Origin: Candidatus Polarisedimenticolaceae bacterium
GTDB taxonomy: Bacteria; Pseudomonadota; Gammaproteobacteria; Chromatiales; Chromatiaceae
Assembly (NCBI GenBank): GCA_021648685.1
Contig: JAKISI010000009.1
Span: 4 to 64,003 of the forward strand
Reading direction: 5' to 3'
DNA: 64,000 nucleotides
Made by a program: the position numbers and the translations under genes
The notes under the pieces: model-generated
What the model saw: the letters and a program-made list of their open reading frames with translations, nothing else
Database searches by the model: none
What the model was told of the DNA's origin: nothing
Shown here: in pieces, positions 42,927 through 60,214 of the stretch
How positions within the stretch are numbered: position 1 is the stretch's first letter
Layout of the letters: each line of letters starts with the position of its first letter

Positions 42927-42927
42927 T

Positions 42928-43572
42928 TCAGTTTACTCCATCTTCTGTAGCCAGCTGCTTGTCGATCTTATTCTTCTTCTCTTCAAGCCAGTTGAAATAG
43001 AGCAACATGACGCCCAGTGTAATAAAGCCGCCAGGAGGTAGAATCATAATAACCCATGGCTCAAAATTCGCCCCAAACAGGGCAAAACCAAAGATCTCGC
43101 CAACGCCCAGAATCTCACGGACAGCACCCAGGGAAACCAGAGCAAAGAGAAAGCCAGCCCCCATACCGAAAGCATCAGCAACCGACATGCGCAAGGTATT
43201 GCGCGATGCAAATGCCTCCATACGACCGAGAATCAGGCAGTTAGCAACAATCAGCGGGATAAAGGCGCCCAGCTCTTTATGAATTACAGGCAGCGCTGCT
43301 GCCAATGTGTAGTCCACAACGGTAACAAAGGTAGCGATTATGATAATAAAGCAAGAGATACGCACCTGCTTGGGGATGTAGCTTTTAAACAGTGAGACCA
43401 GAATACTGGAACCGAGCAATACGAAAAAACTGGCAAGCCCCATGGCCAATCCGTTGATGGCCGAGTTGGTTACCGCAAGCAATGGACACAACCCCAAGAC
43501 CTGCACGAAAACAGGGTTTTCACGCCAGAGGCCCTTCATAAATTCATCGTATGCGAGTTGTTCTTTAGCCAT
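42928..43572 (-). CDS. rnfE: Rnf complex subunit E
   Basis: 214 aa. GLWRENPVFVQVLGLCPLLAVTNSAINGLAMG is an RnfE/NqrD-like signature. Confidence 0.9.
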   Translation of the reverse strand: MAKEQLAYDEFMKGLWRENPVFVQVLGLCPLLAVTNSAINGLAMGLASFFVLLGSSILVSLFKSYIPKQVRISCFIIIIATFVTVVDYTLAAALPVIHKELGAFIPLIVANCLILGRMEAFASRNTLRMSVADAFGMGAGFLFALVSLGAVREILGVGEIFGFALFGANFEPWVIMILPPGGFITLGVMLLYFNWLEEKKNKIDKQLATEDGVN

Positions 43573-43615
43573 GATTAATGCTTCTAATTTAGTCGATTAT
43601 TTTTCAGGATGTCAG

Positions 43616-44317: not shown

Positions 44318-45323
44318 TTTGATCCAGCTCCCGTCCAAATACCCGTGGCTGGGTGTACATGTCAATCAAAGGTGTTGCCGCATTCATCAGCAGGATGGCG
44401 TACATTATCCCTTCTGGAAAGCCGCCAAAGACACGGATGAGTACAACCAGGAGCCCAATGCCAATGGCAAAGATCCAGGTTCCCTTCCGTGTGAGTGGCG
44501 AGGTAACCGGGTCAGTGGCCATAAAGATGGCACCGAGCAACATGCCGCCTGAAAAGACGGTAAAGACTGGCCCTGGATATCTATCCGCATCGACCATAAA
44601 GAGTATCAATGAGAAGATTACTGCAGTACCAATAATGCCCACTGGAATACGCCAATCAAGATCGCGTCGCCACCAGAGATAGATTCCGCCAAGAATAAGC
44701 AGCAGTCCGCTGGTCTCTCCCAGGGAACCTGATGTATTACCGAACAGCAGATCGATAAATGGGGTATCGATATGCTCAAACTTCATCATCCCCAGCGGTG
44801 AGGCTTGCGTAACCGTATCGACAACACCTGTCATCAGGGGCAGTGCAAAAAGGGATGAAGGAATGGTGAAAAAGTCCCCAGGGGCTGTCCATGTGGTCAT
44901 TGCAATCGGGAAAGTGGCCAGCAGAAAGGCACGGCCAACCAGCGCGGGGTTGAATATGTTGGCGCCCATTCCTCCCCAGATGGTCTTTCCAATACCAACA
45001 GCAACGACACCACCGAGAAAGGCCATCCACAAAGGCAGCGCAGGCGGCAGCGTAAGCCCCAGCAACCAACCCGTAAGGATGGCTGTGCCGTCACCAAGGA
45101 AATAGCCTCGTTTCTCTTCGGGGGCAAAATACCACTCGACCAGAACAGCGCCAGCAATACATGCCAGCAGCACCAGAAATGCACCCAAGCCAAAGAACCA
45201 GATGCCAGCCAGGGTGGCAGGCGTTAGCGCATACCAAACATCACGCATAACAACAGGGGTGGTCATCTGCTGCCGCAGCTGTGGCCCGGGTTGTATAAGA
45301 AGTTTTGGATCCTTTTGTGTCAC
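44310..45323 (-). CDS. rnfD: Rnf complex subunit D
   Basis: 337 aa polytopic protein. GANIFNPALVGRAFL and FMATDPVTSP motifs of RnfD/NqrB. Confidence 0.9.
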   Translation of the reverse strand: MTQKDPKLLIQPGPQLRQQMTTPVVMRDVWYALTPATLAGIWFFGLGAFLVLLACIAGAVLVEWYFAPEEKRGYFLGDGTAILTGWLLGLTLPPALPLWMAFLGGVVAVGIGKTIWGGMGANIFNPALVGRAFLLATFPIAMTTWTAPGDFFTIPSSLFALPLMTGVVDTVTQASPLGMMKFEHIDTPFIDLLFGNTSGSLGETSGLLLILGGIYLWWRRDLDWRIPVGIIGTAVIFSLILFMVDADRYPGPVFTVFSGGMLLGAIFMATDPVTSPLTRKGTWIFAIGIGLLVVLIRVFGGFPEGIMYAILLMNAATPLIDMYTQPRVFGRELDQNE

Positions 45324-46684
45324 TGAACCTTCCCCTTCATGGAACGCAGATGATCTTTAGCTGTACGAATATGTTGTACAATCGGAATGCCTGAAGGGCA
45401 CGAGTAGGTGCAACAGCCACACTCTACACAATCCATAACCTTATAGGTTTCAGCCATCTCTTCAAACATGCGCGCCTTTGCCAGACGTGCAAAACGAGCC
45501 GGATTCAGGAAATAGGGACAGGCCTCAACGCAACGACCACAACGGATGCAGTTGTACTCCTGCGGACGTCCGGTCTCATTTTCAGTCAACGCCAATACGC
45601 CTGCGCTGCCTTTGAGCATTGGCGCATCGAGATCGGCAATCGAATCACCCATCATCGGGCCGCCCAGAACCACCTGGCGTGTCTCGTCTGTGAGTCCGCC
45701 GGCATAATCCAGCACTTCGCGTATCGAGGTTCCGAGTGGCACGATCAGGTTGGCAGGATAGGAGACGCCTGGCCCCGAAACTGTAACCACACGCTCGATC
45801 AGCGGCTTGCCGGTCTGAAAATATTCGGCAATGGCGATGATGGTGCCCACGTTATTGACTGCCACCTCGACATCACGCGGCAGCTTGCCTGCTGGCACCT
45901 CAACACCGAACACGGATTTGATCAGCATCTTCTCAGCGCCCTGGGGATACTTCACCTCCAGCGGCATCACACGGATGGGCTGTCCTGGCTTGATCGCATC
46001 CTGCAACGCCTTGATCGCATCGGGCTTGTTCTTCTCGACACCAATGACGATCTCCTCTGCGCCCAGCTTCTGACGCACAATCTCTGCGCCATAGAGCAGC
46101 GCCTCCGTCTGCTCCACCATCTGGCGGTGGTCATTGGTCAGATAGGGTTCACACTCAGCGCCATTGATCAGCAGATAACGGATCTTGTTGCCATCCGGGA
46201 TGGCATATTTCACATGACACGGGAATGCAGCGCCGCCCAACCCCACGATGCCGGCCTTCTGCATCTCGCTGATGAACGCCTCAATTGAGAGCGACTCCCA
46301 GTCGATGGGGTGAACCTCCATCTGCTGCGCATCATATTGATCCGCCTCAATCACGATCGCCTCTTGAAAGGTGCCGTCAGCGTAGCGCTCTGAACCGACG
46401 CCGGTCACGCGCCCGGTGACGGGGCTGTGGAGTGCCACGGAGACAAAGCCACCCGGCTCAGCAATCATCTGACCACGCTTCACTGCATCGCCTGCCTGCA
46501 CAATCGGTTTGGCTGGCGCGCCAACATGCTGACCAAGCGGGATCACAAAGCGTTTGCCAAAAGGAAGGCGCTGGATTGCGAGTTGCTCCGTCTGCTCTTT
46601 GTGATGATGGGGAAACACCCCATGATCAAAGCTGTTACTTAATCGCCGAAATAGATTCATAGTAAAACGGTTATCAGTTGCCAC
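45320..46684 (-). CDS. rnfC: Rnf complex subunit C
   Basis: 454 aa. GLGGAAFPCHVK (NuoF-like NADH/FMN fold), an SLBB domain, and 2x[4Fe-4S] CIRCGRCVEACP / CVECGCCTYSCP. Confidence 0.9.
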   Translation of the reverse strand: MATDNRFTMNLFRRLSNSFDHGVFPHHHKEQTEQLAIQRLPFGKRFVIPLGQHVGAPAKPIVQAGDAVKRGQMIAEPGGFVSVALHSPVTGRVTGVGSERYADGTFQEAIVIEADQYDAQQMEVHPIDWESLSIEAFISEMQKAGIVGLGGAAFPCHVKYAIPDGNKIRYLLINGAECEPYLTNDHRQMVEQTEALLYGAEIVRQKLGAEEIVIGVEKNKPDAIKALQDAIKPGQPIRVMPLEVKYPQGAEKMLIKSVFGVEVPAGKLPRDVEVAVNNVGTIIAIAEYFQTGKPLIERVVTVSGPGVSYPANLIVPLGTSIREVLDYAGGLTDETRQVVLGGPMMGDSIADLDAPMLKGSAGVLALTENETGRPQEYNCIRCGRCVEACPYFLNPARFARLAKARMFEEMAETYKVMDCVECGCCTYSCPSGIPIVQHIRTAKDHLRSMKGKVQ

Positions 46685-46699: not shown

Positions 46700-47575
46700 T
46701 TAGCCATTCATCAGCTGAGCCATATGCTCACCCATGTCAGCCGGTGAGCGGGAGACCGTTACACCAGCCGCTTCCAGCGCAGCAATCTTATCGGTGGCAG
46801 CACCTTTGCCGCCCGAGATGATGGCCCCCGCATGTCCCATGCGACGCCCTGGAGGTGCTGTCAGACCCGCGATATAGGAGACAACCGGCTTGGTGACATT
46901 GGCCTTGATGTACTCTGCGGCCTCCTCCTCTTTACTGCCGCCGATCTCTCCCACCATGATGATCCCTTCGGTCTGCTCATCCTCCTGGAACAGCTTCAGG
47001 CAGTCGATAAAGTTCATGCCGTGAATGGGATCACCACCAATGCCGACACAGGTGGATTGCCCCAGGCCGGCCAGAGAGGTCTGACGAACCGCCTCATAGG
47101 TGAGCGTACCGGAGCGTGAGACAACACCAATCTTGCCCGGCTGGTGGATGGCTCCCGGCATGATGCCGATCTTGCATTCGCCGGGTGTGATCACACCCGG
47201 GCAGTTGGGGCCAATCAGATAGGGCTTGTTGTGGCCACGTAGCGCTGCCTTCACCTTCAGCATATCCACAACCGGAATACCCTCGGTGATGCAGACAATC
47301 ACCTTGATACCGGCATCGGCTGCTTCCAGGATGGCATCGGCTGCAAAGGCGGGCGGCACATAGATCATGCTGGCATCCGCGCCGGTTGCATCGACCGCAT
47401 CGGCCACTGTGTTGAACACCGGCCGATCCAGATGGGATTGACCACCCTTGCCGGGGGTCACGCCACCAACGATGTTGGTACCGTACGCAATGGCCTGTTC
47501 AGCATGGAATGTACCCTGCTTTCCCGTGTAACCCTGGACGACAACCTTGGTCTCTTTATTGATTAAAATACTCAT
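46700..47575 (-). CDS. sucD: Succinyl-CoA synthetase alpha subunit
   Basis: [22 protein letters not shown]...[10 protein letters not shown]...GIGGDP...RRMGHAGAI (catalytic His loop). Canonical SucD. Confidence 0.95.
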
Positions 47576-47621
47576 TTTAATATTCCTGTATCAGCATTCA
47601 GCTAAAGCCGCTAGCAGACGG

Positions 47622-47984
47622 TCAGAAGCGCTTCACAACCGTCCAGCCACTATCTTCTTTCACCATTCGTATGCTGGCCTTGCGCTTCTGGCGCTTGGCG
47701 GGGGGATAGGTTATATCCATCTCCACCCGGCAGCGATACCCCTGCTTGCCATCCACTTCGCTCCGCTTGCAGTTGAGCTTGTCGAGGGCATGGATCGTTG
47801 TTGCAACCGCAGCGCCCGCCTCTTCACCCAACATGGTCTGCGCCAGCTCATTGGCTCTCTCCATCTCGGATTGCAGCGCCTTTTTCAGATCCGCTTCCGT
47901 TGGCTCTCCTGAGCATCCTGCCAGCGCTGCTCCCAGCACTGCAATGGTGAAACCGGTAACCAGGGTCTTCAGTGATCTCCCCAT
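47622..47984 (-). CDS. Small lipoprotein inserted between sucC and sucD
   Basis: MGRSLKTLVTGFTIAVLGAALAGCSG is a textbook Sec/SPII signal with the lipobox LAGC. 120 aa, no other motif. Weak SD. Confidence 0.6.
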   Translation of the reverse strand: MGRSLKTLVTGFTIAVLGAALAGCSGEPTEADLKKALQSEMERANELAQTMLGEEAGAAVATTIHALDKLNCKRSEVDGKQGYRCRVEMDITYPPAKRQKRKASIRMVKEDSGWTVVKRF

Positions 47985-48013
47985 AACCGGCGTCGATGGT
48001 ATACAGCCGTTGG

Positions 48014-49174
48014 TCAGGCGATGGATGCGACGACCTTCTTGGCCGCATCGGTCAACCCTTCGGCAGAGATCAGGTTCAGACCACTCTGATCCAGCAGCTC
48101 CCGGCCCTGTGGCGCATTGGTACCCTCCAGCCGCACAACGACCGGGATTGAGATACCCACATCCTTCACTGCGGCGATGATCCCTTCCGCAATCAGATCA
48201 CAGCGAACGATGCCGCCGAAGATATTCACCAGAATGGCTTCCACCTTTGAATCACTCAGAATCAGTTTGAAGGCAGCCGCCACACGTTCAGCCGTGGTGC
48301 CACCACCCACATCCAGAAAGTTGGCCGGGTCACCACCGTGCAGTTTGATCAGATCCATGGTGGCCATCGCCAGACCTGCACCGTTGACCATGCAGCCGAT
48401 ATTGCCGTCCAGGGTGATGTAGTTGAGGTCATGCTTCTGCGCCTCACACTCCTGTGCGTCTTCCTGGCTCTCGTCGCGCATCTCCAGCAGATCCGGATGG
48501 CGATAGAGGGCATTGTCATCAATGTTGATCTTGCCATCCAGTGCCAGCAGATCACCATCGCCAGTCACGATCAGCGGGTTGATCTCAACCAGGCTCATAT
48601 CTTTGTCATCAAACAGTCGGTAAAGCCCCATCATGATTCGGGTCAGCGCACCAACCTGCTTCCCCTCCAGCCCCATACGAAAGGCCGCTTGGCGACACTG
48701 GTAGGGTTGCAGGCCTGCGGCCGGATCGGCACAGACGGTGACGATCTTCTCCGGTGTTGCCTCGGCAACCTCTTCAATATCCATACCGCCCGATGCCGAG
48801 GCCATGAAGACAACCCGCTCGGTTGCGCGGTCAACCACAGCACTCAGATAGAGTTCACGGTCGATATCCAGTGTCTGCTCAATCAGCACCTGGCTGACCG
48901 GCAGCTCGCGCCCGTGGGTCTGGAAGGTAGCCAGAGCGCTTCCCAACATGCGATCCGTCTCCAGCTTCAGCTCATCGATGCTTTTGACCAGCTTCACGCC
49001 ACCAGCCTTGCCTCGCCCACCAGCATGTATCTGCGCCTTGACCACCCAGGCCTCACCGCCGATGGCATTGGCCGCAGATTCAGCATCGTTTACTGAATCA
49101 ACCATCTGTCCCACAGGGATGGGGATTCCATACTCTGCGAAGAGGCCCTTCGCTTGATATTCATGTAGGTTCAT
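48014..49174 (-). CDS. sucC: Succinyl-CoA synthetase beta subunit
   Basis: [18 protein letters not shown]....[15 protein letters not shown]...[38 protein letters not shown]...[11 protein letters not shown] is near-collinear with E. coli SucC. Confidence 0.95.
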
Positions 49175-49261: not shown

Positions 49262-52200
49262 TTAATAACCTGCCAGTTTGAGCAATTGCTCACGCACATG
49301 GGCGGATGTCTCTGCCTGCGCGCCACTCTGCTGCGCACTGCTCTGTTGCTGATACTCGCTCTTCAATGCTGCCAGTGCTGCCTCATGCTCTTTTGCCAGA
49401 CGCTCCTCTGTCGCTTGAACGATGACCGCAGCAAAAGGTGTCTTGATACCCGCCAGCTCCTGCAAGGTGCACCAGCTCTGGGCACGCTCGGCAATCTCGG
49501 CGGCCAGCTCGGCATCGACACGGATGCGTTGTCTCTCACCACCCTCTTCCGGCAGCTGAATAAACGGCGTTTTCCCCTGACGCGCATCAACCTCCAGTCC
49601 CAGCCAGAGATCCAGTGCGGTTGGCGCTGGGTCTTCGCTGGTGATCGGTACAAAGCGACTCGCAAAACGGCTTTCACTCAATGCCCACTGCACGGGGGTA
49701 AACGGTGTACCATCCTCATTGGCAAGCCAGGGGGCATTCAGCTCCGGGTTCCCTTCCAGCGTGATGCGGGAGCCAAACACTCCTTCCGCAGCAGGATTAT
49801 ATCTAAATAGTGGAAAGGCACGACTGTTCAGCGCAAGCTCCGCCTGTTGCAGGGTCTGGCTTACGGAAAAACCGTGTCGCCCTGGGCTGGGAACATGCAG
49901 ATGAATCAGCGCTGGCCCTTTGTATTTAAGGGCTTCCCGTACGCTTTGACGGAGATGATCCGCTGCTGCGATAGAGCTCTGAGCCACATAGGCCACTCGC
50001 TGCGCCATCGCCATCAACCCCAGATCTGCCTTGGGATCACGCGATGATGCCACCGCAGCATCCCTCAGATCGCCACTGTCCAGGCCAAAACCCAGGTCGG
50101 CAAGCAGCAGGATCTTTACCGGCAGTCCGGATTTCAACAACCAGGCTACCTGTGAAAAACCACGCCCGGCCAGTGTCTCATCATTGCCTACCAGCAACAG
50201 CGGCGGGCAGAGCGCACGCTCCTGATCGTTCAGATCCTGCCAGCCCAGCCCATCCAGCTCATCGCGTAGCTGTTGGATGCCAGTAGGCTGGTCAAGCTCC
50301 AGTTTCGCAGCACGGAGCAGGCGCTGTGCCTCTGTTGCCTCGCGCAACTGCCCCTGCAGCAGACCGGCTGCCATCTGTGCGGTATCGCCCGTGGTGTCTA
50401 TCGCAACCGGCACCTGGAATGGGTTATTGGGGAAGACACCCGCCCAGGCTGCAACCGTGCCTGGCGCAATTGCCAGGCCAAAGCGGGAACGCCCCAACCC
50501 GGTCTCACCCTCCGCAAGCCGCCAGTGCAGCTCACCCAACGCCTTGGCCAGATCAACCAGCCGACGCAGCCGCACCGCGTTGACATTGCCCTCTTCAACC
50601 GAGGTCTCGATCTGGCTGGTCAACTCACCAACATCAACGATTCCACTCTTGAGCTGATCCAGACCCGCAGTCAGGGCATCCAGATTATCCACTGGCAGCG
50701 CGGAAGCGATCTCTTCACGGATCTGATCCTTCAGCTGTTGCAGGGTCTCTGCAATCTCCTTGGTAAAGCTGTGCAGCAGAGGCTGCTGATGATATTCCGT
50801 TGCTGCCAGCGCCATGCGGACGGCGATCTTCTCGCCCGATCCAGATTCAGCACCATCGCCACCTGCCACCGCCATGGCACAGTAGCGTGACAGCATGACC
50901 GCAGCCATTGCGCCAACCTCTGGGTTGTTACTGACTTTTTCTATAATCTCTGAAGGGGTATCGGGGGTGTTGCCCCAAATATCCCAAATCTCACGCGCCT
51001 GTTGCAGGCGTGTCGCATCCTGCTTCTCTGCCTGCATGGAGCCCGGCTCACACACGGTGATGCAGATGCCGCAGTTCTTGCAGGCATTCGGGTTGATCGC
51101 CAGCGCCAGCAGTGCGCCGCTATCCTTTTTCTCTGCTTCCAGGTCGTTAAAAAGAGGCGTGGTGACCGCAACCGGGAGTGCGCCAATCCGGGCGTTGACT
51201 GCCGCGAAGGCCTCATCCATCGCCTGTTTGCGATCCTCTGGCAGCGGCATCTTCTCTGACAGCCAGGCGTAGCCCTCTTCCAACAACGCACTTGCCGAAC
51301 CACTTTTGGCCTTTCTGGTGCGAACCTGGCTACAGATCCGCCCAGCGATTTTTGAACCAGATGGGCGCAGGGCATCGCCACCGGCAATCTTGATGCCGGC
51401 ATCGATCAGTGCCGCCGGGGTCACGGCGACCGCGCCGATGGCGCCTTCCGGGCAGCTGCTCCAGCATTTTCCACAACCTGTACACTCGGTTGGGTCAAAT
51501 GCAGGCAGCATACGGCGGGTATCACTCAGGTCACGAAAGGTCGAGGTCAGCGGCGGCAGGGTGCCGGCCGTGATATAGGGGTCGGCGGTCTGCGCGTCAG
51601 CCTCACCGTCACGGTAGAGGATGCCGACCTGATCCCAGAATCTGGGCAGGCTGTCGTGGCGCTCGTTTTTGCTCTTGAGCTGGCGCACCGCAATAGGGGT
51701 TGAATCGGTTTTAGCCACTGTGCGAGCAGGCTCATCCAGTGCCGTATAATCAATCTTTCTGATGGCCGCCATGCCGGTCTGAAAGGCGGCCAGCAGCGCA
51801 CTGCTCGTCCCACTGGGGAGGTTATCCAGCGCCTCTTCGCGAGCAGGGATAAGTCGGCGCGCCTTGACATCGACCGCCTCAGCATCCAGCAATGCCTTGA
51901 AGAGACCACCCAGCAGATGTTCGCGGGTCAGATCGGCAGCCGGAATACCTGGTACTTTGGCATCTTTACTGCGCGGCATGACCGCATAGAGGGTTAAACC
52001 TTTCTGTTTGACTGCTGCGCGAGTATCTGCTGAGAGGCCTTGCCATACTGCTTTGTCAGTACCTGCTGACAATATCATCAAGGCACCACCATCGCGCAGC
52101 TGCGTATGGGGCTTGAACAGCGGATTAGGACGTTTGGCCGCCAGAATAGAGAAGTCAACCGTGATATCGTCGCCGCTGTCCAGCAGCCCGCTCCCGGCAT

Positions 52201-53887
52201 GTGTTACCAGATCGGTACAGCAGGCACCCCAGCGCTCCCAGCTCAGGCCTGTCCGGCTGCGAAGCTCACCACCAACCAGTTGGTGCAGGTAGCTTCCCAC
52301 CTCATCCACCAGCCCCTCTCCACCCTGACCCGTCATGCGGTGCACCGCAATGGTCAGTGCTTTTTCAGGGCGCAGATCAGGTGCCGCTATGGTTGAGCGC
52401 AGACCCTGTTTGGCAATCTCAGGATAGGCACGATTCAGGTTATCCAGCAGCACCTGGCGTTTGGGGTAGCTGGTCGATCTCTGCGCAAGGTCGACTCCCA
52501 GATAGTGGCGCGAGCCATTGAGTTGTTCCAGATCCCGGCACAGCGCAATCAGATCCGCACTGCGTACCGGCTGACCACCGACACCATAGACTACGGTACG
52601 CAGCCGAGGGCGGGCCTTTTCGTCCATTGCAGGAATGCCAGGGTGGGTCTGTTCGCCATAGCGGCTGTTCTCTTGCGCCTGGTCAAAAGCAGCTCGTATC
52701 TCGCGGGTCAGTGGGGCATCACCCGCCAACGGGGTTTCCGCACGCTCCAGGACCACAACATTGGCACGGCCACGCAGCCGGCCAACAATCTCAGCAGATG
52801 GAAACGGGCGCACCGCATGGATGCCAACCACACCGACTCGCTGCCCGGTCTCTGACAGAACATGTGCGGCAACGGCCTTTGCTGTCTCAATGGCTGAACC
52901 CTGTGCCACCAATACCAGTTTTGCGTCATCCGCTGAGTAGCGGGGCCACTCTGCGCTATCCGTGCCCAATTCAAAATCGGTTACAGAGGAGTAGTCCCTG
53001 CCCGTCTGCGCGGCAAAATCTGTAATCGCCTGTTGCAGGATGGTCGGCAGATGCTGTTCAAAAAAGGCACTCTGTCCAATCGCACCCAAGGCGTAGACCT
53101 CGGCGCCCTGTAGTGCACCATGCATCACCGGGTTGTCCAGGTCATGCCAGTTCGGCACCTGGCGGCGGTGATCGCCAAACAGCATTTTTTGCGCATCGGT
53201 GGGGGTCGGGATAGCGGCATCGGATGCGCCAATAAATCGCTCTGCCAACTCTTGCGAGGCCAGCCTGACATTTTGCAGCGAACGGGCGGTCTGTTCCCCA
53301 TCCATCGCCACCACACCCGGCACCAGCGCGCGCTCAGCGACGCGACGGGCAATCAGGGTAAAGTCCACCGCCTCTTGCACGGTGGATGCCACCAGTGTGA
53401 AGGCACCGGAATCGGCGCATAGATGGATCGCCTCATGCCCCGTACCCAGCGCCGGACCCTGACCTGAGAGAGCGCTGTTTTCAAGATGTATCACCAGCGG
53501 AAGATGGCGGTTGGCAGCGGTTCGCAGCTGATCCTGAACCGCAGCAGCATCCTGCCCGGAGATAAAGGCCGTAGCCCGCCCACCCGACAGGGCAAGCCCT
53601 ATCGCGGCAGCGAGCGCACCACGTGGCCCATCTGTCTCGCAGGAGCTGATCCGCCCGCCAAAGGCGTTACTGTCACGCTGCTCTTGCTCGGATCGCCACG
53701 CTTGGTTAGCGCCGACCCCTGGAAAGCTACTGCCCAGGGCAGCGGCTCCAGAGATAGCGGCTTCGGTTACGGCAACGGCTGTATTCCCATCCAGAACGGT
53801 CTCTATCCCATCTTCCTTTGCGGCTCTCTTGGAAGAAACAAATAGGCGCCGGTACAGGCGGATGGCCATGGTATTATTACTAGGCAT
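49262..53887 (-). CDS. Giant divergent pyruvate:ferredoxin oxidoreductase (NifJ/PFOR) paralogue, 1541 aa
   Basis: PFOR domain order is recognisable: domain I (LDGNTAVA...SCETDG...FISGQ), domain III (TGQGGEGLVDEVG), two CxxCxxCxxxCP motifs (aa 802-813 and 936-948), and a domain VI-like C-terminal third (GAESGSGEKIAVR; LLVGNDETLAGRGF; FPLFRYNP). The proximal-cluster Cys are replaced and there are large insertions. Start may be Met7 (53869). Confidence 0.8.
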   Translation of the reverse strand: MPSNNTMAIRLYRRLFVSSKRAAKEDGIETVLDGNTAVAVTEAAISGAAALGSSFPGVGANQAWRSEQEQRDSNAFGGRISSCETDGPRGALAAAIGLALSGGRATAFISGQDAAAVQDQLRTAANRHLPLVIHLENSALSGQGPALGTGHEAIHLCADSGAFTLVASTVQEAVDFTLIARRVAERALVPGVVAMDGEQTARSLQNVRLASQELAERFIGASDAAIPTPTDAQKMLFGDHRRQVPNWHDLDNPVMHGALQGAEVYALGAIGQSAFFEQHLPTILQQAITDFAAQTGRDYSSVTDFELGTDSAEWPRYSADDAKLVLVAQGSAIETAKAVAAHVLSETGQRVGVVGIHAVRPFPSAEIVGRLRGRANVVVLERAETPLAGDAPLTREIRAAFDQAQENSRYGEQTHPGIPAMDEKARPRLRTVVYGVGGQPVRSADLIALCRDLEQLNGSRHYLGVDLAQRSTSYPKRQVLLDNLNRAYPEIAKQGLRSTIAAPDLRPEKALTIAVHRMTGQGGEGLVDEVGSYLHQLVGGELRSRTGLSWERWGACCTDLVTHAGSGLLDSGDDITVDFSILAAKRPNPLFKPHTQLRDGGALMILSAGTDKAVWQGLSADTRAAVKQKGLTLYAVMPRSKDAKVPGIPAADLTREHLLGGLFKALLDAEAVDVKARRLIPAREEALDNLPSGTSSALLAAFQTGMAAIRKIDYTALDEPARTVAKTDSTPIAVRQLKSKNERHDSLPRFWDQVGILYRDGEADAQTADPYITAGTLPPLTSTFRDLSDTRRMLPAFDPTECTGCGKCWSSCPEGAIGAVAVTPAALIDAGIKIAGGDALRPSGSKIAGRICSQVRTRKAKSGSASALLEEGYAWLSEKMPLPEDRKQAMDEAFAAVNARIGALPVAVTTPLFNDLEAEKKDSGALLALAINPNACKNCGICITVCEPGSMQAEKQDATRLQQAREIWDIWGNTPDTPSEIIEKVSNNPEVGAMAAVMLSRYCAMAVAGGDGAESGSGEKIAVRMALAATEYHQQPLLHSFTKEIAETLQQLKDQIREEIASALPVDNLDALTAGLDQLKSGIVDVGELTSQIETSVEEGNVNAVRLRRLVDLAKALGELHWRLAEGETGLGRSRFGLAIAPGTVAAWAGVFPNNPFQVPVAIDTTGDTAQMAAGLLQGQLREATEAQRLLRAAKLELDQPTGIQQLRDELDGLGWQDLNDQERALCPPLLLVGNDETLAGRGFSQVAWLLKSGLPVKILLLADLGFGLDSGDLRDAAVASSRDPKADLGLMAMAQRVAYVAQSSIAAADHLRQSVREALKYKGPALIHLHVPSPGRHGFSVSQTLQQAELALNSRAFPLFRYNPAAEGVFGSRITLEGNPELNAPWLANEDGTPFTPVQWALSESRFASRFVPITSEDPAPTALDLWLGLEVDARQGKTPFIQLPEEGGERQRIRVDAELAAEIAERAQSWCTLQELAGIKTPFAAVIVQATEERLAKEHEAALAALKSEYQQQSSAQQSGAQAETSAHVREQLLKLAGY

Positions 53888-54737
53888 GTCGTTTCTGGCT
53901 CTTCTCTTGGCTATGTTCTTCGAACTGGTTACCCTCCAGCCACTTTATCGCCCCGGTCGGGCAGCGGTAGGTGGCTTTTGGCTTTGCATTACCGAGATCA
54001 AAATGCACGATGGGCAGATTGTTCTCCATGACCACTACGCCCGGCTCAGCATCCAGGGCACAACGGCCACAGGCATCACAAGCTACGGTACACAGCGCCA
54101 CTGCATCATCACCAGCTAAGGGGTTGTTGCATTGAACGTAGAGTTTTTCGTTAAGCGGCAAAATCTCAAACAGATCGCGCGGACAGGCATCAACGCAGTC
54201 GCCACAGGCAGTACAGAGATCGACCTCGACCTTTGGCAGGCCATTGTCGTTCATGGTGATTGCACCGAAGGTGCAGGAGATCTCGCAGTCGGCAAGCCCC
54301 AGGCAACCCCAGGAACAGCCCTTGCCACCACCTGCAACCATATCCGCAGCCCGACAGCCATCAAAACCTTTGTACTCCGCAATCTGATGCGCTTCTGCCA
54401 CACCACCGGCACAGCGCAGCCGCGCTACCCGTTTGTTCTGCTCGCCCGCATCCACCCCGAGATATTCGGCGATGCTTTCCAGTACATCCGGGCTTGCAAC
54501 GGTGCACAGGCTTGGCTCTACCTCGCCTGAAACCAGTTTCTCAGAGAAGGCGCGACAGCCGGGTTCACCGCAGGCACCGCAGTTGGTACCCGGGAGCAAA
54601 TCTTCGGTATCGTCGATGCGTGGGTCTTCCTCTACCTTCAGGTATCGGTAGGCCACGGCAAGGACAACACCAAAGAACAGTCCCAGTCCGAGCATGATGC
54701 CCGGTGCAGAAAATAGTGTTCCGAGATCAAATGACAT
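53880..54737 (-). CDS. rnfB: Rnf complex subunit B (long, polyferredoxin form)
   Basis: N-terminal TM and a CGACGEPGCRAF motif, then several 4Fe-4S motifs (CTACGDCVDACP, CDACGRCA...). 285 aa. Confidence 0.85.
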   Translation of the reverse strand: MSFDLGTLFSAPGIMLGLGLFFGVVLAVAYRYLKVEEDPRIDDTEDLLPGTNCGACGEPGCRAFSEKLVSGEVEPSLCTVASPDVLESIAEYLGVDAGEQNKRVARLRCAGGVAEAHQIAEYKGFDGCRAADMVAGGGKGCSWGCLGLADCEISCTFGAITMNDNGLPKVEVDLCTACGDCVDACPRDLFEILPLNEKLYVQCNNPLAGDDAVALCTVACDACGRCALDAEPGVVVMENNLPIVHFDLGNAKPKATYRCPTGAIKWLEGNQFEEHSQEKSQKRHA

Positions 54738-54832: not shown

Positions 54833-57319
54833 CTAGTTGTACGCTTCTGCCCGCTTGATCAGATCATCCAGATCAGGCTCATCCGGGTTCAGAGGTTTGC
54901 CTGGATGGATGCAGTTAGCAGGACAGAACTCAGCCGACTCTACCAGTTGGGCAAAGGTTCCAGCCGTTGCATCTGCAATATAGGCCTGCTTGTTGTCGTC
55001 ATAGACGAACATCAGCGGGTTGAGATTGATACAGTCATTGCAGGTGGTGCATAGAATCGTTTCGATCCACGGATCATCGAAGCTCACCTCTTCCTCTTCA
55101 GGTTCGGGTGCCGCTTCAGGCTCAGCTGCAGCCTCTGGTTCCGCCTTTTCCGTCGATACAGCAGCAGAGGCTGTGGTTGCCACAGCCGGTGTACCGGCAG
55201 CAGGCAGTGCCGCGGAGAGATCCATTCCCACCAGCGCATTAGCCAATCGACCCAGTGCCTCGCCCGCTGTTTCGCTACGGACACGCTCCAGCTCTTCAGC
55301 CTGCTCGCTCTGCATGGCCTCAATCTCGGCAGCCGCAGCCGCTTGCGCCTCTTCACTGGCTCTCTGTACCGCCAGATCTATATAGCGGCTACGCACACCG
55401 GCCAGCTCCTGAAGAGTGCGCCAGTAGTTGCGGCGGTCACGGCAGGCTATGACCAGTGCACGGGAGATCACCAGACGCTGCATCACATCGTTACCATCCA
55501 CCGCCCAGATGAAGGGTACGCTGCTATTGGCCTGCTCTTCTGGCAGCGTCAACCACTGTGCAACTGGCACAAGATCATCTGCGCTATTTCCCTCCGTGAC
55601 CACGCCAAAGTGTGCCTTCAGGCTTGGAATCAGCAGCGCATAATCGGCAAAGGTGAAGGAGAGTTCTGAATGTACTGTGTTGCCGTCTGCATCAACATAG
55701 CTGTAGTTGTGGTTTGGCCAATCATGCTCGGCCTGCGGATTGCCGCTGAAATCCATGCGCGAGGCAAAATCATCGCCTGCATCAGGATTGATCAGAAAGG
55801 CTGGATGGGCGCGCCCTTCCAGTGCGGCACTGGCCACAAACCACGGATCAAGCGAACCGCCTTCGGATGACTTAACGCCCGTGCTGACCAGGTGCAGGCC
55901 GGTGCAGGTGGCATCAAGTGCCAAGCCGTACTGCGTCAGCAGATGCTCGTAGCGTGCCGCAGAGGACTGAGCAACCACAGCCTGGCGATGGCTGATACCG
56001 AGGTACCCAAGCTCCACACGGTAGCGCGCAAATGGATCTTCACCTTCAGCCGCAGCCGGATTACTGTGCGCCTGAACCCGCACCAGTATCTGTACCGGAC
56101 GACCGGAACTCAGCAGCTGCGAAAAGGAGCAGAGTCCGCTGGTTGCGACATTGCTGGCATTATCAATGGCAACAATGGTCGGCAGCAGCAGCAGCTCTTC
56201 CTGAGAAAAACCTTCCCAGCCAAAATTCTTGAACCAGGCATCATGGATCGCAGGCCTGTAGGCATCTCTGCTCTCCAGCCGGGCAATGCGTACCGCCGCA
56301 AAAATCTGAGCCAGTTTCTCTGCCTCTGCATCAAAGGCGGCTGCAGCTACTGCGCAGGGATCCACATCGCTGACGGATGCAAAATCAGCCGCATCGGAGA
56401 GTAGCGCCCCACCCAGTTTATCGGTGTGTACAGCACGCACCAGCACAGGATCGCTCTGATAAGATTCAAGAACCTCCAGTGCAGCTTCAACACGTTTACG
56501 TCGCGCAGCTGCCATTGATGCAGAACCCTGTGTATGGTTCATCATCTTCGACATGGCTGTAGCATTGAAATAGCCGCTTGAAACACCAATGCTCTGTTTG
56601 ATGGCGGTCGACTTCCTTGCCGCAGCTGTCTTGCCTTTTTCCACGGCCAACAGCGCTTTCAGGCTGGCGGCCAGCTGGACAATCTCCTGATGGAATGCCG
56701 CGCGGCGGGGCAGTGATTTGCAGCGCGCCACATGCAGCAGCAGATAGACCGCTGCCAGACGCCCATAGCCCAAGAACTGGCCACCCTCTTCAACGGCAGC
56801 AACCAGTTGGTTCAGGTCGGCCTGCAGACGTTCAACATGCTCACCCTTCAGGTCAAGCTGCTTCTGCAACGCCTCTGCTGCATCAGCAACCAGAGGAGCC
56901 GCATCGACCGGTGCCTCCTGGCCTTGCAATTTGCTGCACAGCTCGCGCTCGATCCAGGCAAGGTTGTCTTTGAGGATGCGCGCGCTTTCGGCAGCGGGCG
57001 CAAAACCCTCTACTACATCACCAAGAAAGCGGGAGAGCGGCTTTGCCAAAACATCACCGCCACTCTGCGCTGGGTAGAGGAACAACGGGTAGTCGTACCT
57101 GACCTTCGAAACATCCCGAAAGCTGTTGAGTGAGACGGGCAGGAACTCGCTGCTCACTTTTCCAAGTGTGGATTTAGCGCCAGGCTCACCCAGATGAAAG
57201 TGGCGCAGAGTGTTCATCAGCTCGTCAGAGGCATCAGCAGAAGCGGGGAGAAAAGGCACTCCTCCCGCGCTTCGCTCTGATTCCTGCAGCGGCTGCTTTT
57301 TACTAGCTTGTGCTGTCAT
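54833..57319 (-). CDS. 828-aa protein: unknown N-terminal region + PFOR domain-VI-like region + Ala/Glu/Pro linker + C-terminal single-cluster ferredoxin
   Basis: aa ~370-645 parallel the C-terminal third of the 1541-aa protein (ELGYLGISHRQAVVAQSS vs DLGLMAMAQRVAYVAQSS; PFIWAV...MQRLVISR...NYWRTLQELAGV vs PFIQLP...RQRIRVDA...QSWCTLQELAGI). The linker is AEPEAAAEPEAAPEPEEEE. The ferredoxin motif is CTTCNDC...CPANC (nt ~54920-55051). Confidence 0.7.
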   Translation of the reverse strand: MTAQASKKQPLQESERSAGGVPFLPASADASDELMNTLRHFHLGEPGAKSTLGKVSSEFLPVSLNSFRDVSKVRYDYPLFLYPAQSGGDVLAKPLSRFLGDVVEGFAPAAESARILKDNLAWIERELCSKLQGQEAPVDAAPLVADAAEALQKQLDLKGEHVERLQADLNQLVAAVEEGGQFLGYGRLAAVYLLLHVARCKSLPRRAAFHQEIVQLAASLKALLAVEKGKTAAARKSTAIKQSIGVSSGYFNATAMSKMMNHTQGSASMAAARRKRVEAALEVLESYQSDPVLVRAVHTDKLGGALLSDAADFASVSDVDPCAVAAAAFDAEAEKLAQIFAAVRIARLESRDAYRPAIHDAWFKNFGWEGFSQEELLLLPTIVAIDNASNVATSGLCSFSQLLSSGRPVQILVRVQAHSNPAAAEGEDPFARYRVELGYLGISHRQAVVAQSSAARYEHLLTQYGLALDATCTGLHLVSTGVKSSEGGSLDPWFVASAALEGRAHPAFLINPDAGDDFASRMDFSGNPQAEHDWPNHNYSYVDADGNTVHSELSFTFADYALLIPSLKAHFGVVTEGNSADDLVPVAQWLTLPEEQANSSVPFIWAVDGNDVMQRLVISRALVIACRDRRNYWRTLQELAGVRSRYIDLAVQRASEEAQAAAAAEIEAMQSEQAEELERVRSETAGEALGRLANALVGMDLSAALPAAGTPAVATTASAAVSTEKAEPEAAAEPEAAPEPEEEEVSFDDPWIETILCTTCNDCINLNPLMFVYDDNKQAYIADATAGTFAQLVESAEFCPANCIHPGKPLNPDEPDLDDLIKRAEAYN

Positions 57320-57343: not shown

Positions 57344-58297
57344 TTAGATCGAGAAGGAGTCAAGCGCCTTGTTAACACCGGCGATCTTCTCTTCGTCAGA
57401 CATGTCCATGCCTACGTTGCTCCAGTCGTCATAGACCGGGGCTTCCGGGTCGTGGTAGAGCAGCCCGCAGGGCACCCTGCTCTCATCACGAGCGATATTC
57501 ATGGCGCCACTCCAGTCAGACGGGTCATGCACTACCTGATTCGGGTAGATGCGTTCAACCGCCTCATTGGTCGGGATACCGTTCTCATGCTTCAGCAGCA
57601 GGATCTGGGATGGATCGTCCATCATCTCCTTATGAATATCCTCCACAAAGACCGGGCAACGCTGGATGATGCGCACAAAGCTGGTACCACGGTGGGCATG
57701 CGCCATCTTGATGGTCTCATAGACCAGCAGCGGGTTCCAATCCACAACCTGTGCCACAAATGACACGTTGGTAATGCCCAGGGTAATGGTCAGTGGATTC
57801 ATCGCCGGCAGGAAAGAGCCAGTTGGATGGGTGCTGGTTCCATAATCTTTTGGCGTGGTGGGTGAAGTCTGGTTTTTAGTCAAACCATAAATGGCATTGT
57901 CAAATACCAGAACCACCATATCAATGTTGTAACGTATGCCGTGTATCCAGTGGCAGCCGCCAATGGAGAAGCAGTCACCATCACCGGTGGAGACCCAGAC
58001 ATCCAGATCCGGGCGACGCGCCTTGATGCCAGAGGCAAAGGGCAGCGCACGACCATGCAGGCCGTGAAAGCCGTAGGTCTTCATGTAGTGCGGCAGGCGG
58101 CTTGAACAGCCGATGCCCGATACATTGACAATTTTCTCGGGCGCCAGCTGCGCCTCTCGGCACACCTTTTGCACGGCAGTCAATACACCATGGTCGCCAC
58201 AACCGGTACACCAGCGTGGCTGCGCACCTTCATAATCTTCAAGCGTAAAATAGCGGTCTTGAACGTCAAGTGACCAATCTGCTTTAAGTCCGAACAT
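57344..58297 (-). CDS. korB: 2-oxoglutarate(2-oxoacid):ferredoxin oxidoreductase beta subunit (TPP-binding)
   Basis: WCTGCGDHG, GIGCSSR and the canonical TPP motif STGDGDCFSIGGCHWIHGIRYNIDMVVLVFDNAIYGLTKNQ. Confidence 0.9.
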   Translation of the reverse strand: MFGLKADWSLDVQDRYFTLEDYEGAQPRWCTGCGDHGVLTAVQKVCREAQLAPEKIVNVSGIGCSSRLPHYMKTYGFHGLHGRALPFASGIKARRPDLDVWVSTGDGDCFSIGGCHWIHGIRYNIDMVVLVFDNAIYGLTKNQTSPTTPKDYGTSTHPTGSFLPAMNPLTITLGITNVSFVAQVVDWNPLLVYETIKMAHAHRGTSFVRIIQRCPVFVEDIHKEMMDDPSQILLLKHENGIPTNEAVERIYPNQVVHDPSDWSGAMNIARDESRVPCGLLYHDPEAPVYDDWSNVGMDMSDEEKIAGVNKALDSFSI

Positions 58298-58309: not shown

Positions 58310-60214
58310 CTAATTCAGTTTCTTCAGACGACCAAGAACGGCCTCACAAATCATTCCAGGCTGCAACGGCGCGGCCTGCACGATAGACCAGCAGTCAATA
58401 TCCAGCAGCGTATGGTGGCGCAGGATATTGGCCAGCTGGGCATAGCGGCGGGTGGCATCGGTGATCAGCGGCATATCAGGATCGTCGCTATAGTTCAGCT
58501 CAACGGTCATCACCTTCTTGAACTTGGAGAAGATCTCTTTCAGATCCTTCTCAAACGGATGCAGGAAACGCAGGTGAACATTAGAGACCTTATGACCCTC
58601 AGAACGCATACGATCCACAGCCTCCTTAACAGCCCCCATGGTGGAACCCCAGGAGACAACCAGCATGTCACCCTCTTTGTCACCATAGATCTCAGGCCGC
58701 TGCAGGGTAGCGGCAAAGGCAGCCATTTTGCGGCTGCGCATGTTACAACCGATCTGATTTGACATGGAGTCGTAGGCCACCTTACTGCGCTTGGTGTGAG
58801 CCAGTCCGGTCAGGACGTACTCACCACCAGGCTGACCTGGGATTGGCCGTGGCGACAGGCCGGTCTCATCATCCCAGTCATAGGGTGGAATATTTTTGTC
58901 CCACTCCGACTGGTCAATCGGCGCAGAGAGCCATTCGGCCTGAGGCTCTGGACGATCATAGGGTTGCACAGCGGTCGCCAGGTTGGCATCGGTCAGGATA
59001 ATGACCGGGGTGCGGAAGGCCTCGGCCAGCTTGCGCGCCGTGATCACAAAGTGGAAACACTCGGAGATGGTGGCCGGTGCCATAACGATCTTGGGTGCGT
59101 CGCCAGGCATGCTGTAGATCGCTGAGAGCAGATCACCCTGTTCGATCTTGGTCGGCTGGCCGGTTGCCGGGCCGCCACGCTGAACATTGACAACTACCAG
59201 TGGCACCTCACACATTACAGCCAGACCCAGAATCTCGGTCTTAAGTGCCATACCGGGGCCAGAGGTGACAGTAACAGCGGTTCTGCCTGCAAAGGAGGAG
59301 CCGACTGCATAGGCAACTGCCGCAATCTCATCCTCGGCCTGATGCATAAACCCGCCGGTATGGTGAAACACTTCTGATACATAGTGAGAGACAGAGGTTG
59401 CCGGAGTGATCGGATACATTGCCAGCATATCCATACCGGAAGCCAGTATACCCAGGCCAACCGCCGTGTTGCCGTTGGTCACTACCGTAGGCTTCTGTAT
59501 GCCCTCATGCTCAGGCGGAACCTCGTAATGGTATTCGAGGTTCTCAGCAGCGTACTGGTAGCCCGCCTTAAACAGCTCGTGGTTTGGCTTGATCACCTTC
59601 TCGCCCTTGCGTGCGAAGACCTTTGCAATCTCATCCAATGCACGCTGGGTATCACGACTGTAGATACGGCAGAGCATGCCAAGTACAAACATGTTCTTGC
59701 CCTGGCGGGCATTTTTAACAATCTTGAGGCACTCTTTCTCAAGCGGCAGCTCATGGATAACCAGGCCTCGCTCCTTGAAGTCAGCCAGCGCCGCCGCATA
59801 CTGCTCGCGGATTGCCGGCTGCGGATCATCTGCCCATTTGTTCTCCAGCAGAACCACCGTGCCCTTGCGGAAAGCACCATTTACGATGCGGTTGTAGAGC
59901 ACCTGCTCGTTCAGGGCGACAACCAGATCTGCCTGGTCGCCCATGTTGGTGACATATTTGGAACCCAGACGGATGCGAACACCACTGGCACCCTCCTGCG
60001 AACGGGCAGGCGGCTGAATCTCAGCGGGGATGATCTCCACTGTCCAGACGCCGTTCCCCATCTTGCCACTAACGATGCCAAAGGTTTGTCCACACTTCTG
60101 GGCACCTTCGCCAGAGTCACTGACAACCTCAATGATATGCTCTTCAATACGCTTTGGTTTTCCTGCGGAAATCTCAGCGACATTGCTTTTTTGCGCTGTT
60201 GCTTGTTTAGTCAT
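58310..60214 (-). CDS. korA: 2-oxoglutarate(2-oxoacid):ferredoxin oxidoreductase alpha subunit (gamma-alpha fusion)
   Basis: 634 aa. N-terminal gamma-like domain (SDSGEGAQKCG), then an alpha domain (GNTAVGLGILASGMDMLAMYPITPAT...QAEDEIAAV...TSGPGM). Confidence 0.9.
   Translation of the reverse strand: MTKQATAQKSNVAEISAGKPKRIEEHIIEVVSDSGEGAQKCGQTFGIVSGKMGNGVWTVEIIPAEIQPPARSQEGASGVRIRLGSKYVTNMGDQADLVVALNEQVLYNRIVNGAFRKGTVVLLENKWADDPQPAIREQYAAALADFKERGLVIHELPLEKECLKIVKNARQGKNMFVLGMLCRIYSRDTQRALDEIAKVFARKGEKVIKPNHELFKAGYQYAAENLEYHYEVPPEHEGIQKPTVVTNGNTAVGLGILASGMDMLAMYPITPATSVSHYVSEVFHHTGGFMHQAEDEIAAVAYAVGSSFAGRTAVTVTSGPGMALKTEILGLAVMCEVPLVVVNVQRGGPATGQPTKIEQGDLLSAIYSMPGDAPKIVMAPATISECFHFVITARKLAEAFRTPVIILTDANLATAVQPYDRPEPQAEWLSAPIDQSEWDKNIPPYDWDDETGLSPRPIPGQPGGEYVLTGLAHTKRSKVAYDSMSNQIGCNMRSRKMAAFAATLQRPEIYGDKEGDMLVVSWGSTMGAVKEAVDRMRSEGHKVSNVHLRFLHPFEKDLKEIFSKFKKVMTVELNYSDDPDMPLITDATRRYAQLANILRHHTLLDIDCWSIVQAAPLQPGMICEAVLGRLKKLN

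Follow-up and report, generated by a model that had tools for sequence, protein, structure and literature searches.

A PFOR-derived iron–sulfur protein of rnf operons has lost the cofactor sites of a pyruvate synthase

Does the large protein resembling pyruvate:ferredoxin oxidoreductase (PFOR) that is encoded within an rnf operon of a Candidatus Polarisedimenticolaceae bacterium make pyruvate, or does it serve another purpose? Its gene lies in a 64,000-nucleotide (nt) stretch of contig JAKISI010000009.1 (GenBank assembly GCA_021648685.1), hereafter the window. We call its 1541-amino-acid (aa) product PFL, and use p828 for the 828-aa product of a neighbouring gene. A deposited protein identical to PFL, from a Candidatus Polarisedimenticolaceae metagenome-assembled genome (MAG), carries the name ‘4Fe-4S binding protein’. 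The first-pass annotation of the window described PFL as a PFOR paralogue that appears to lack all four ligands of the proximal [4Fe-4S] cluster, and proposed that it either is not a conventional pyruvate synthase or depends on a partner for the missing relay. The joint loss of the Glu that activates thiamine pyrophosphate (TPP), of the GDG...N motif that binds it and of the proximal cluster strongly supports the first of these alternatives, as judged from comparative sequence analysis. PFL is probably an electron-relay or scaffold protein instead of the pyruvate synthase of its annotation.

The descent of PFL from PFOR is clear. A family profile built from 65 PFL homologues aligns end to end with Escherichia coli YdbK (hhalign probability 100%, 1098 aligned columns) and, in a search of the PDB, matches the PFORs 6cin, 7plm and 1b0p with E values of 1e-52 to 1e-59 across domains I–II, III–V and VI. 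The conserved domain order claimed in the first-pass annotation is thus upheld, and every motif that it quoted lies at the residues it gave. An AlphaFold2 (AF2) model of residues 780–1541 (predicted local distance difference test score (pLDDT) 85, predicted template modelling score (pTM) 0.83) finds its best Foldseek match in Moorella thermoacetica PFOR (E 1e-14). Pfam recognizes POR_N (residues 90–224), PFOR_II (322–404) and Fer4 motifs, with TPP_enzyme_C remaining below threshold (16 bits versus 21.9) and the POR (gamma) and EKR domains not detected. Against TIGR02176, the curated PFOR equivalog, PFL scores 152 bits, one sixth of the cut-off of 911.35. The term ‘PFOR paralogue’ holds as a statement of ancestry but not as one of function.

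All four cysteines that bind the proximal cluster are replaced in PFL, by E1014, S1017, T1144 and S1334, a result on which phmmer, hhalign and AF2 secondary structure agree. The residues in question lie in the motifs GAESGSGEK (1012–1020), APGT (1141–1144) and VPSP (1332–1335), and in both phmmer and hhalign the Cys of IANATGC pairs with T1144 and that of (A/S)PC with S1334. A first, global hhalign alignment had placed the YdbK motif GACSGCGE inside a helical insert of PFL. With insert residues 1036–1128 excised, a second alignment with YdbK (probability 97.5%, E 8e-12) pairs E1014 with C819, S1017 with C822, T1144 with C847 and S1334 with C1071, and this alignment and AF2 secondary structure identify the earlier placement as a gap-cost artefact. 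The AF2 model agrees with the pairing, in that a loop at residues 1008–1017 leads into a helix and a strand at 1137–1140 precedes a helix at 1144–1149. An alignment that puts conserved cysteines at the four positions was not obtained. This mapping uses YdbK numbering; the corresponding ligands of Desulfovibrio africanus PFOR we take to be Cys812, Cys815, Cys840 and Cys1071. An internal positive control is provided by KorB, encoded in the same window, which on motif inspection keeps C30-x2-C33, GC64, GDG and C214.

The replacements are fixed and not drifting. E1014, S1017 and S1334 occur in 65 of 65 homologues, and position 1144 is Ser in 36 and Thr in 20, so that 56 of 65 carry one or the other. 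G1010, D1011, G1016 and G1018 are likewise invariant, E1019 (the Glu of canonical GCGE) is kept in 63 of 65, and few stretches of PFL are as conserved as the loop that stands in place of CxxC (G1010-D-x-A-E-x-G-S-G-E-K). A wider survey of 1.84 billion cluster representatives returned 602 matches at E ≤ 1e-30; counts out of 150 given here and below refer to the best 150 of these 602 representatives of 50%-identity clusters, the 150th of which still scores 405 bits. Within this set Glu is found at position 1014 in 136, and Ser at positions 1017 and 1334 in 138 and 128, respectively. None has Cys at position 1144, and never is there more than one Cys across the four ligand positions. Position 1019 is Glu in 78 and Ala in 40.

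Two further cysteines lie in this part of the protein, C1003 (positions ~50879–50881 of the window) and C1227 (~50207–50209). They are found in 58 and 63 of the 65 homologues, and are less constant further out (94 and 104 of 150). A second [4Fe-4S] site built from this pair is unlikely, given that there are just two cysteines and that both vary in the wider family.

The loss of catalytic sites extends further than the first-pass annotation saw, with the TPP machinery also gone across the family. At the position of the Glu that activates N1′ of TPP, which is the last residue of EMQSE in canonical PFOR, PFL has Pro88, and its 65 homologues have Pro (43), Ala (12), Gly (9) or Ser (1) and never Glu. 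Among the 104 full-length representatives, 93 have Pro (41), Ala (27), Gly (10), Ser (7), Val (5) or Thr (3); in the other 11 the position is a gap or holds a less common residue, and Glu does not appear in the tally. The GDG of the TPP–Mg motif reads NDE, as had been noticed at residues 1235–1237, and this motif is degenerate family-wide. Its Asp is present in the PFL of the window and in 48 of 65 homologues, and among the 150 representatives position 1236 is Asp in 38, Glu in 35, Ser in 21 and Ala in 21 (an acidic residue in 73), with the flanking glycines mostly replaced. The SNTGGQ loop downstream of NDE is deleted in both the phmmer and the hhalign alignments. Canonical PFOR has all the features that PFL is missing: the proximal cysteines, the activating Glu, the GDG...N motif and the SNTGGQ loop. 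Some substrate contacts persist: the Arg that binds the pyruvate carboxylate is kept in 52 of 65 homologues (it is Ser in the PFL of the window), and Ser or Thr is kept at the Thr31-like position among the 65. There is no credible TPP site to relay from, so that a partner replacing nothing but the lost relay would not bring back pyruvate synthesis, and the second alternative of the first-pass annotation becomes very improbable.

What PFL retains is its pair of ferredoxin-type motifs in domain V, a feature it has in common with single-chain PFORs of the NifJ/YdbK type (D. africanus 1b0p and M. thermoacetica 6cin) together with their domain order and the fold of their C-terminal half. Both motifs are intact, as first reported, and their eight cysteines are invariant in 65 of 65 homologues. 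They stand ~124 aa apart, as also reported, because a helical insert lies between them. Each Cys of the first motif is present in 133–144, and each of the second in 135–145, of the 150 representatives (together ~90–96%). About 10 of the 150 (P0241–P0387) have one or more of these cysteines replaced (C805 by Asp, Ser or His, C808 by Leu, C939 by Pro or Ala), so that the distal clusters, too, may have been lost in some lineages. A number of representatives cover just the C-terminal half, with lengths of ~750–820 aa; they could be split genes or contig-end fragments.

The PFL gene is under purifying selection throughout. The ratio of nonsynonymous to synonymous substitution rates (dN/dS), computed against three orthologues with 86%, 82% and 70% identity, is 0.08–0.14 overall and 0.03–0.2 per domain, and domains I and VI, which formerly bound TPP, are no exception. 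Segment 961–1030 gives the lowest values in two of the three comparisons (0.03–0.08). Because dN/dS is low in every domain, the gene must be functional, and a pseudogene or assembly artefact is ruled out by these ratios together with hundreds of intact orthologues. Family-wide loss of catalytic and cofactor residues combined with purifying selection makes PFL a putative pseudoenzyme.

PFL also carries parts that canonical PFOR does not have: a 28-aa N-terminal extension, inserts of ~100 aa in domains V and VI, and a C-terminal extension (Table 1). The domain V insertion is modelled by AF2 as helices over residues 824–901 with pLDDT above 90, lies opposite a gap in YdbK, and is kept in p828, in which residues 95–175 align to PFL 823–924. 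The domain VI insertion, originally put at ~90 aa between residues ~1031 and 1130, is real and comprises four AF2 helices. The C-terminal extension announced as ~140 aa also exists, but in comparison with YdbK its size is nearer 90–120 aa. It includes a WxTLQELAG motif, in which W1472, L1475, Q1476, E1477 and G1480 are invariant among the 65 homologues, and a long terminal helix (AF2, 1484–1538). The N-terminal extension (residues 1–28; 53804–53887, minus strand) is conserved and basic, with the consensus MPxFxxxAIRLYRRLFG, and YdbK residue 1 falls opposite PFL residue 29. It is possibly a docking or amphipathic segment.

The gene for p828 adds a second degenerate protein to the locus. The first-pass annotation mentioned the 828-aa neighbour but did not see that p828 is itself paralogous to PFL, matching its C-terminal half, and carries a tethered ferredoxin domain. 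BLASTP aligns it to PFL 1211–1491 (E 1e-23), and hhalign matches its residues 15–700 to PFL 711–1539 (probability 99.9%, E 5e-34). A Foldseek search with its AF2 model retrieves beta subunits of 2-oxoacid:ferredoxin oxidoreductases (OFORs), namely 9bt4_C (3.7e-4), 5exd_F (4.7e-4) and 6n2n_B (5.8e-3), each with a probability of 1.00. This kinship with OFORs is visible only by way of PFL and of the fold: direct hhalign comparison of p828 with YdbK gave nothing significant beyond a Cys motif, the segment of the PFL profile compared with KorB by hhalign was not significant, and Pfam and NCBIfam held no OFOR family match for p828, Pfam yielding only a weak Fer4_13. The protein reads IDN for GDG and has no proximal-type Cys set, its only conserved cysteines outside the ferredoxin domain being C322 and C626. 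It lacks both domain V ferredoxin motifs of PFL and has the helical inserts and the module formed by WxTLQELAG and the long helix. An acidic, disordered linker of ~50 aa (residues 699–746, AF2 pLDDT below 50) leads from the body to the C-terminal ~60 aa, which match Fer4_13 and D. africanus ferredoxin I (1dax, E 3.5e-6), bind a single [4Fe-4S] cluster by this likeness, and contain the invariant C757, C760, C763 and C799. The p828 domain differs from ferredoxin I in being fused, through the linker, to a 700-aa degenerate OFOR-like body. Such flexible tethering suggests a swinging electron carrier.

Table 1. Features of the PFL locus, with positions in the window
Feature	Positions	Strand	Evidence
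PFL, 1541-aa PFOR-derived protein, domain order I-II-III-IV-V-VI plus C-terminal extension	49262–53887	-	ORF (open reading frame), Pfam/NCBIfam, hhalign, PDB profile matches, dN/dS
Pro88, position of TPP N1′-activating Glu	53624–53626	-	phmmer, hhalign
First ferredoxin-type motif CTGCGKCWSSCP (802–813), C802-x2-C805-x2-C808-x3-C812-P813	51449–51484	-	Alignment, Pfam Fer4
Helical insertion of ~100 aa (823–924), splits dicluster ferredoxin domain	51116–51421	-	AF2, YdbK gap, p828 alignment
Second ferredoxin-type motif CKNCGICITVCEP (936–948), C936-x2-C939-x2-C942-x3-C946-E-P	51044–51082	-	Alignment
Remodelled proximal-cluster loop G1010-D-G-A-E1014-S-G-S1017-G-E-K1020, replaces GACSGCGET	50828–50860	-	Insert-excised hhalign
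Helical insertion in domain VI, four helices (1018–1125), between former CxxC loop and former GC strand	50513–50836	-	AF2 DSSP, YdbK gap
Thr1144, third proximal-cluster Cys position (IANATGC)	50456–50458	-	hhalign
N1235-D1236-E1237, replaces GDG of TPP–Mg motif	50177–50185	-	phmmer, hhalign
Ser1334 in invariant P-S-P, fourth proximal-cluster Cys position	49886–49888	-	phmmer, hhalign
C-terminal extension (~1371–1541), common to p828	49265–49777	-	BLASTP, hhalign versus p828, AF2
rnfB, long multi-cluster type, 285 aa, 20 Cys	53880–54737	-	Pfam/NCBIfam, PDB matches
p828, paralogue of PFL C-terminal half	54833–57319	-	BLASTP, hhalign, Foldseek, AF2
Tethered ferredoxin domain of p828 (aa 750–810)	54890–55072	-	Alignment, profile match, AF2
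korB, genuine OFOR beta subunit	57344–58297	-	NCBIfam, motif inspection
korA, OFOR alpha subunit (gamma-alpha fusion)	58310–60214	-	TIGR03710 (506 bits versus cut-off 483)
NuoF-like FMN/[4Fe-4S] protein, first gene of unit	60502–61749	-	NCBIfam
sucC, 120-aa lipoprotein ORF and sucD (succinyl-CoA synthetase), between PFL and rnfC in this lineage	46700–49174	-	Pfam/NCBIfam
rnfC-rnfD-rnfG-rnfE-rnfA	42345–46684	-	Pfam/NCBIfam

The two degenerate proteins are encoded amid genes for intact partners. On the minus strand the order is that of a NuoF-like gene, korA, korB, p828, rnfB, PFL, sucC, a gene for a 120-aa lipoprotein, sucD and rnfC-rnfD-rnfG-rnfE-rnfA, with a strong terminator (61903–61868) just upstream of the NuoF-like gene and none inside the unit. 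The start of PFL overlaps the rnfB stop codon by 8 nt (ATGCCTAG), as the first-pass annotation had recognized. The best PDB matches of RnfB are the Acetobacterium woodii and Clostridium tetanomorphum RnfB proteins, which are of the long, ferredoxin-accepting type. The closest solved relative of KorA is the 2-oxoglutarate:ferredoxin oxidoreductase (OGOR) of Magnetococcus marinus, an enzyme of the reductive tricarboxylic acid (rTCA) type (6n2n_A, E 1e-80).

The same arrangement is found well beyond this organism. In a set of 80 loci from different GTDB species, in which neighbours were counted only at loci with enough flanking sequence, the order korA-korB-p828-rnfB-PFL-rnfCDGEA recurs. The gene immediately upstream of PFL is rnfB in 67 of 71 loci; p828 lies upstream in 61 of 66 and korB in 55 of 61, and rnfC lies downstream in 58 of 66. 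Just 7 of 66 loci have sucC downstream. The placement of PFL in an ‘rnf/rTCA operon’ by the first-pass annotation stands for its rnf half: the tightest conserved linkage is to rnfB and the rnf genes and not to genes of the rTCA cycle, which the first-pass annotation did not see. Carriers are mainly Gammaproteobacteria (Sedimenticolaceae, Thiohalomonadaceae, Woeseiaceae, Chromatiaceae, Beggiatoaceae and symbionts of tubeworms, lucinids and nematodes), along with a few MAGs labelled Eisenbacteria or Myxococcales. The pair formed by rnfB and PFL outlasts the other neighbours, which makes RnfB the most persistent partner. For example, the cultured Thiorhodococcus mannitoliphagus has rnfB-PFL-rnfDGEA, with rnfC inverted next door and korAB and p828 not adjacent, and in a Thiotrichaceae MAG (locus L013) the pair is isolated among otherwise unrelated genes.

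What, then, might a PFOR-derived protein without its active site do beside Rnf? PFL resembles RnfB and the Rnf ferredoxin partners (A. woodii 9eri, C. tetanomorphum 7zc6) in being an rnf-encoded Fe–S protein of the cytoplasmic, ferredoxin-facing side. It is not homologous to Rnf subunits A, B, C, D, E, G or H; its likeness to them is a generic Fer4 one (7zc6_B, E 2e-4, one cluster motif), and Pfam and NCBIfam contain no Rnf family match for it. KorAB belongs to the same superfamily as PFL and p828, with a beta-subunit fold common to p828 and domain VI of PFL, and two genes upstream the window encodes a KorAB that resembles an orthologue of the M. marinus enzyme. KorB keeps its cluster cysteines and GDG, which PFL and p828 do not. 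M. marinus OGOR and the KorAB of the window have no ferredoxin domain, unlike PFL with its dicluster domain and p828 with its tethered single-cluster domain.

On balance we lean towards a reading in which PFL and p828 together form a non-catalytic, OFOR-derived Fe–S adaptor or relay that links RnfB to KorAB. That the two proteins bind RnfB and KorAB, and the path that the electrons take, are what we infer here from the overlap with rnfB, the synteny, the long type of RnfB, the affinity of KorA to an OGOR free of a ferredoxin domain, and the co-regulation of the p828 orthologue with korAB(3) in Candidatus Endoriftia persephone. The adaptor would dock on the cytoplasmic RnfB arm of an Rnf complex of the A. 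woodii/Clostridium type and would move low-potential electrons between RnfB and the proximal cluster of KorB, with the two fixed clusters of PFL serving as the relay and the tethered ferredoxin of p828 as a swinging arm. In this manner PFL and p828 could replace or supplement soluble ferredoxin. In the reductive direction, NADH and the ion gradient would drive reductive carboxylation of succinyl-CoA, yielding 2-oxoglutarate; in the oxidative direction, oxidation of 2-oxoglutarate would feed Rnf.

Several observations weigh against an electron-carrying adaptor. The former active-site region is sharply conserved and not decaying (GD-AE-GSGEK, P-S-P, and the Arg in 52 of 65), which could equally mean a new ligand-binding, metal-binding or catalytic site. 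Some 1100 aa of the protein outside the clusters are under strong purifying selection, which is much for a mere relay and hints at more than a wire. The loss of ferredoxin cysteines in about 10 of 150 representatives fits a scaffold better than a relay. Furthermore, korAB and p828 are not adjacent to PFL in L012, L013, L027 and L064, and PFL stands alone in L025, a Thiotrichales MAG.

In a bolder version of the adaptor proposal, which we hold only tentatively and would not yet bet on, a supercomplex anchored in the membrane and free of ferredoxin would unite PFL, p828, RnfB and KorAB, and the two cofactor-stripped OFOR paralogues would wire the Rnf ion pump to 2-oxoglutarate synthase. If it were true, NADH and the ion gradient would drive CO2 fixation directly, and no low-potential electrons would be released into the oxygen-exposed cytoplasm. 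Rnf would then have accessory subunits of a class not known before, and chemiosmotic energy would be coupled to a carboxylation step in a novel way.

The conserved loop raises the possibility that the remodelled site gives PFL a new enzymatic activity, based on a different metal or cofactor. Candidate ligands would be D1011, E1014, S1017, E1019, S1334 and the acidic residues at 1236, 1237, 1264 and 1266, and the chemistry would be redox or carboxylation-related, with electrons exchanged with Rnf through the two kept clusters. The invariance of the loop residues and of S1334 among the 65 homologues, the near-constancy of E1019, the low dN/dS of segment 961–1030, and the retention of the substrate-carboxylate Arg in most homologues and of Ser or Thr at the Thr31-like position all speak for such an enzyme. 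We nevertheless consider it unlikely. Without a proximal cluster, the kept clusters are expected, from PFOR geometry, to lie past electron-tunnelling distance from the site; the proposed ligands are less fixed among the 150 representatives, as at positions 1019 and 1236; the PFL of the window has Ser in place of the Arg; and neither Pfam nor NCBIfam recognizes a known cofactor-binding motif.

A regulatory role seems improbable to a similar degree. PFL and p828 would then be pseudoenzymes that bind or heterodimerize with KorAB, a behaviour known of dead paralogues in other enzyme families, or that use the relic site as a sensor of 2-oxoacids or CoA, and would tune OGOR activity or gate Rnf electron flow and carry no electrons themselves. 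The encoding of two degenerate OFOR paralogues beside an active OFOR speaks for such a role, as do the strong constraint on the surfaces of domains I and VI, the partly kept substrate-contact residues, the persistence of some family members without ferredoxin cysteines, and the co-regulation of korAB(3) with the p828 orthologue in Candidatus Endoriftia persephone described below. However, the eight ferredoxin cysteines invariant in the 65 homologues and the gain of a ferredoxin domain by p828 both point to electron transfer, and it is rnfB, not korAB, that is the most conserved neighbour, the rnfB–PFL pair being found also without adjacent korAB.

That PFL has remained active as a 2-oxoacid:ferredoxin oxidoreductase or pyruvate synthase, binding TPP in an unconventional way and bypassing the proximal cluster, is very improbable, for although its PFOR domain order is complete, the Asp of GDG survives in the window and in most of the 65 homologues, and glyoxylate carboligase is a TPP enzyme that works without the activating Glu, the activating Glu, both glycines of GDG, the SNTGGQ loop and the four cysteines are jointly missing family-wide, the GDG Asp position is acidic in under half of the 150 representatives, the TIGR02176 score falls far short of its cut-off, p828 also has no proximal-type Cys set, and Endoriftia encodes a separate canonical PFOR.

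We found no analysis of the PFL family in the literature, and no description of a PFOR-like protein associated with Rnf. The nearest report concerns the tubeworm symbiont Ca. Endoriftia persephone, in which KorA(3) (LOY14_RS16060), KorB(3) (LOY14_RS16065) and a ‘PFOR-like ferredoxin’ (LOY14_RS16070) are encoded consecutively and are all downregulated under H2S limitation (PMC11636981). By its position directly after korB(3) and its annotation, LOY14_RS16070 is the p828 orthologue; it is named there in an expression table, without sequence or cofactor analysis or a link to Rnf (Mitchell et al. 2024, PMC11636981). The same genome encodes a separate canonical PFOR(3) elsewhere (PMC11636981), so that a carrier may possess a genuine PFOR in addition. 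Mitchell et al. 2024 (PMC11636981) place the OGOR and PFOR isoforms of Endoriftia (the dimeric OGOR and ‘PFOR-like’ forms explicitly) and its RNF in a group of complexes whose role or direction in vivo is not known.

Within the PFOR/OFOR superfamily, the PFL family is best regarded as a widespread and routinely misannotated variant, one recruited into Rnf operons. Pipelines label its members ‘pyruvate ferredoxin/flavodoxin oxidoreductase’ or ‘4Fe-4S binding protein’, and those of the p828 family ‘ferredoxin’, ‘pyruvate decarboxylase’ or even ‘D-alanyl-D-alanine carboxypeptidase’. The carriers are prominent sulfur oxidizers, including symbionts of tubeworms, clams and nematodes, Beggiatoaceae, Thiomargarita, Woeseiaceae, Sedimenticolaceae and purple sulfur bacteria, and metabolic reconstructions of such organisms that count PFL as a pyruvate synthase are probably wrong. 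The operon offers a concrete, testable candidate for electron coupling between Rnf and a 2-oxoacid synthase in microaerobic autotrophs, and a cultured carrier exists in T. mannitoliphagus DSM 18266. PFL would be a clear case of a large TPP/Fe–S enzyme recycled into a non-catalytic redox module.

Other genes of the locus and its relatives deserve brief mention. The NuoF-like protein has an FMN/NADH site and a [4Fe-4S] domain and stands alone, without a NuoE or NuoG partner; its gene precedes korA in roughly one in four related loci, and the protein could be a second entry point for NADH. Upstream of it, a 161-aa ORF (61884–62369) without a family match overlaps the terminator. The 120-aa ORF (47622–47984, minus strand) has the lipoprotein signal LGAALAGC and no Pfam or NCBIfam match. 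It separates sucC from sucD, two genes that usually adjoin and are coupled in translation, and is kept in the three closest loci (L002–L004) and absent from the sucCD pairs of tubeworm symbionts. A bacteriohemerythrin gene (41749–42144, minus strand) directly follows rnfA, also in L002 and L003, and may serve in O2 buffering or sensing beside O2-sensitive Fe–S enzymes. Additional tblastn signals were seen in L009 (JASMJM010000112.1), with a second rnfB plus PFL-like signal downstream of rnfA, and in L073, where a further PFL-like segment precedes rnfB; either could reflect duplication or a cross-hit of p828.

Two long ORFs that were suspected of encoding a canonical PFOR turned out to be other proteins: a 1228-aa ORF upstream of rnfB-PFL in L013 is DUF6079, and the 1231-aa ORF at 27385–31080 (plus strand) of the window, thought from its PFOR-like length to be nifJ, is MetH (NF007024, 2050 bits). 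Finally, positions 39245–41718 (plus strand) encode a 2-phosphoglycerate kinase homologue and, after it, an archaeal-type cofactor-independent phosphoglycerate mutase (apgM), a pairing better known from the 2,3-bisphosphoglycerate and cyclic diphosphoglycerate (cyclic-DPG) metabolism of archaea than from Gammaproteobacteria.

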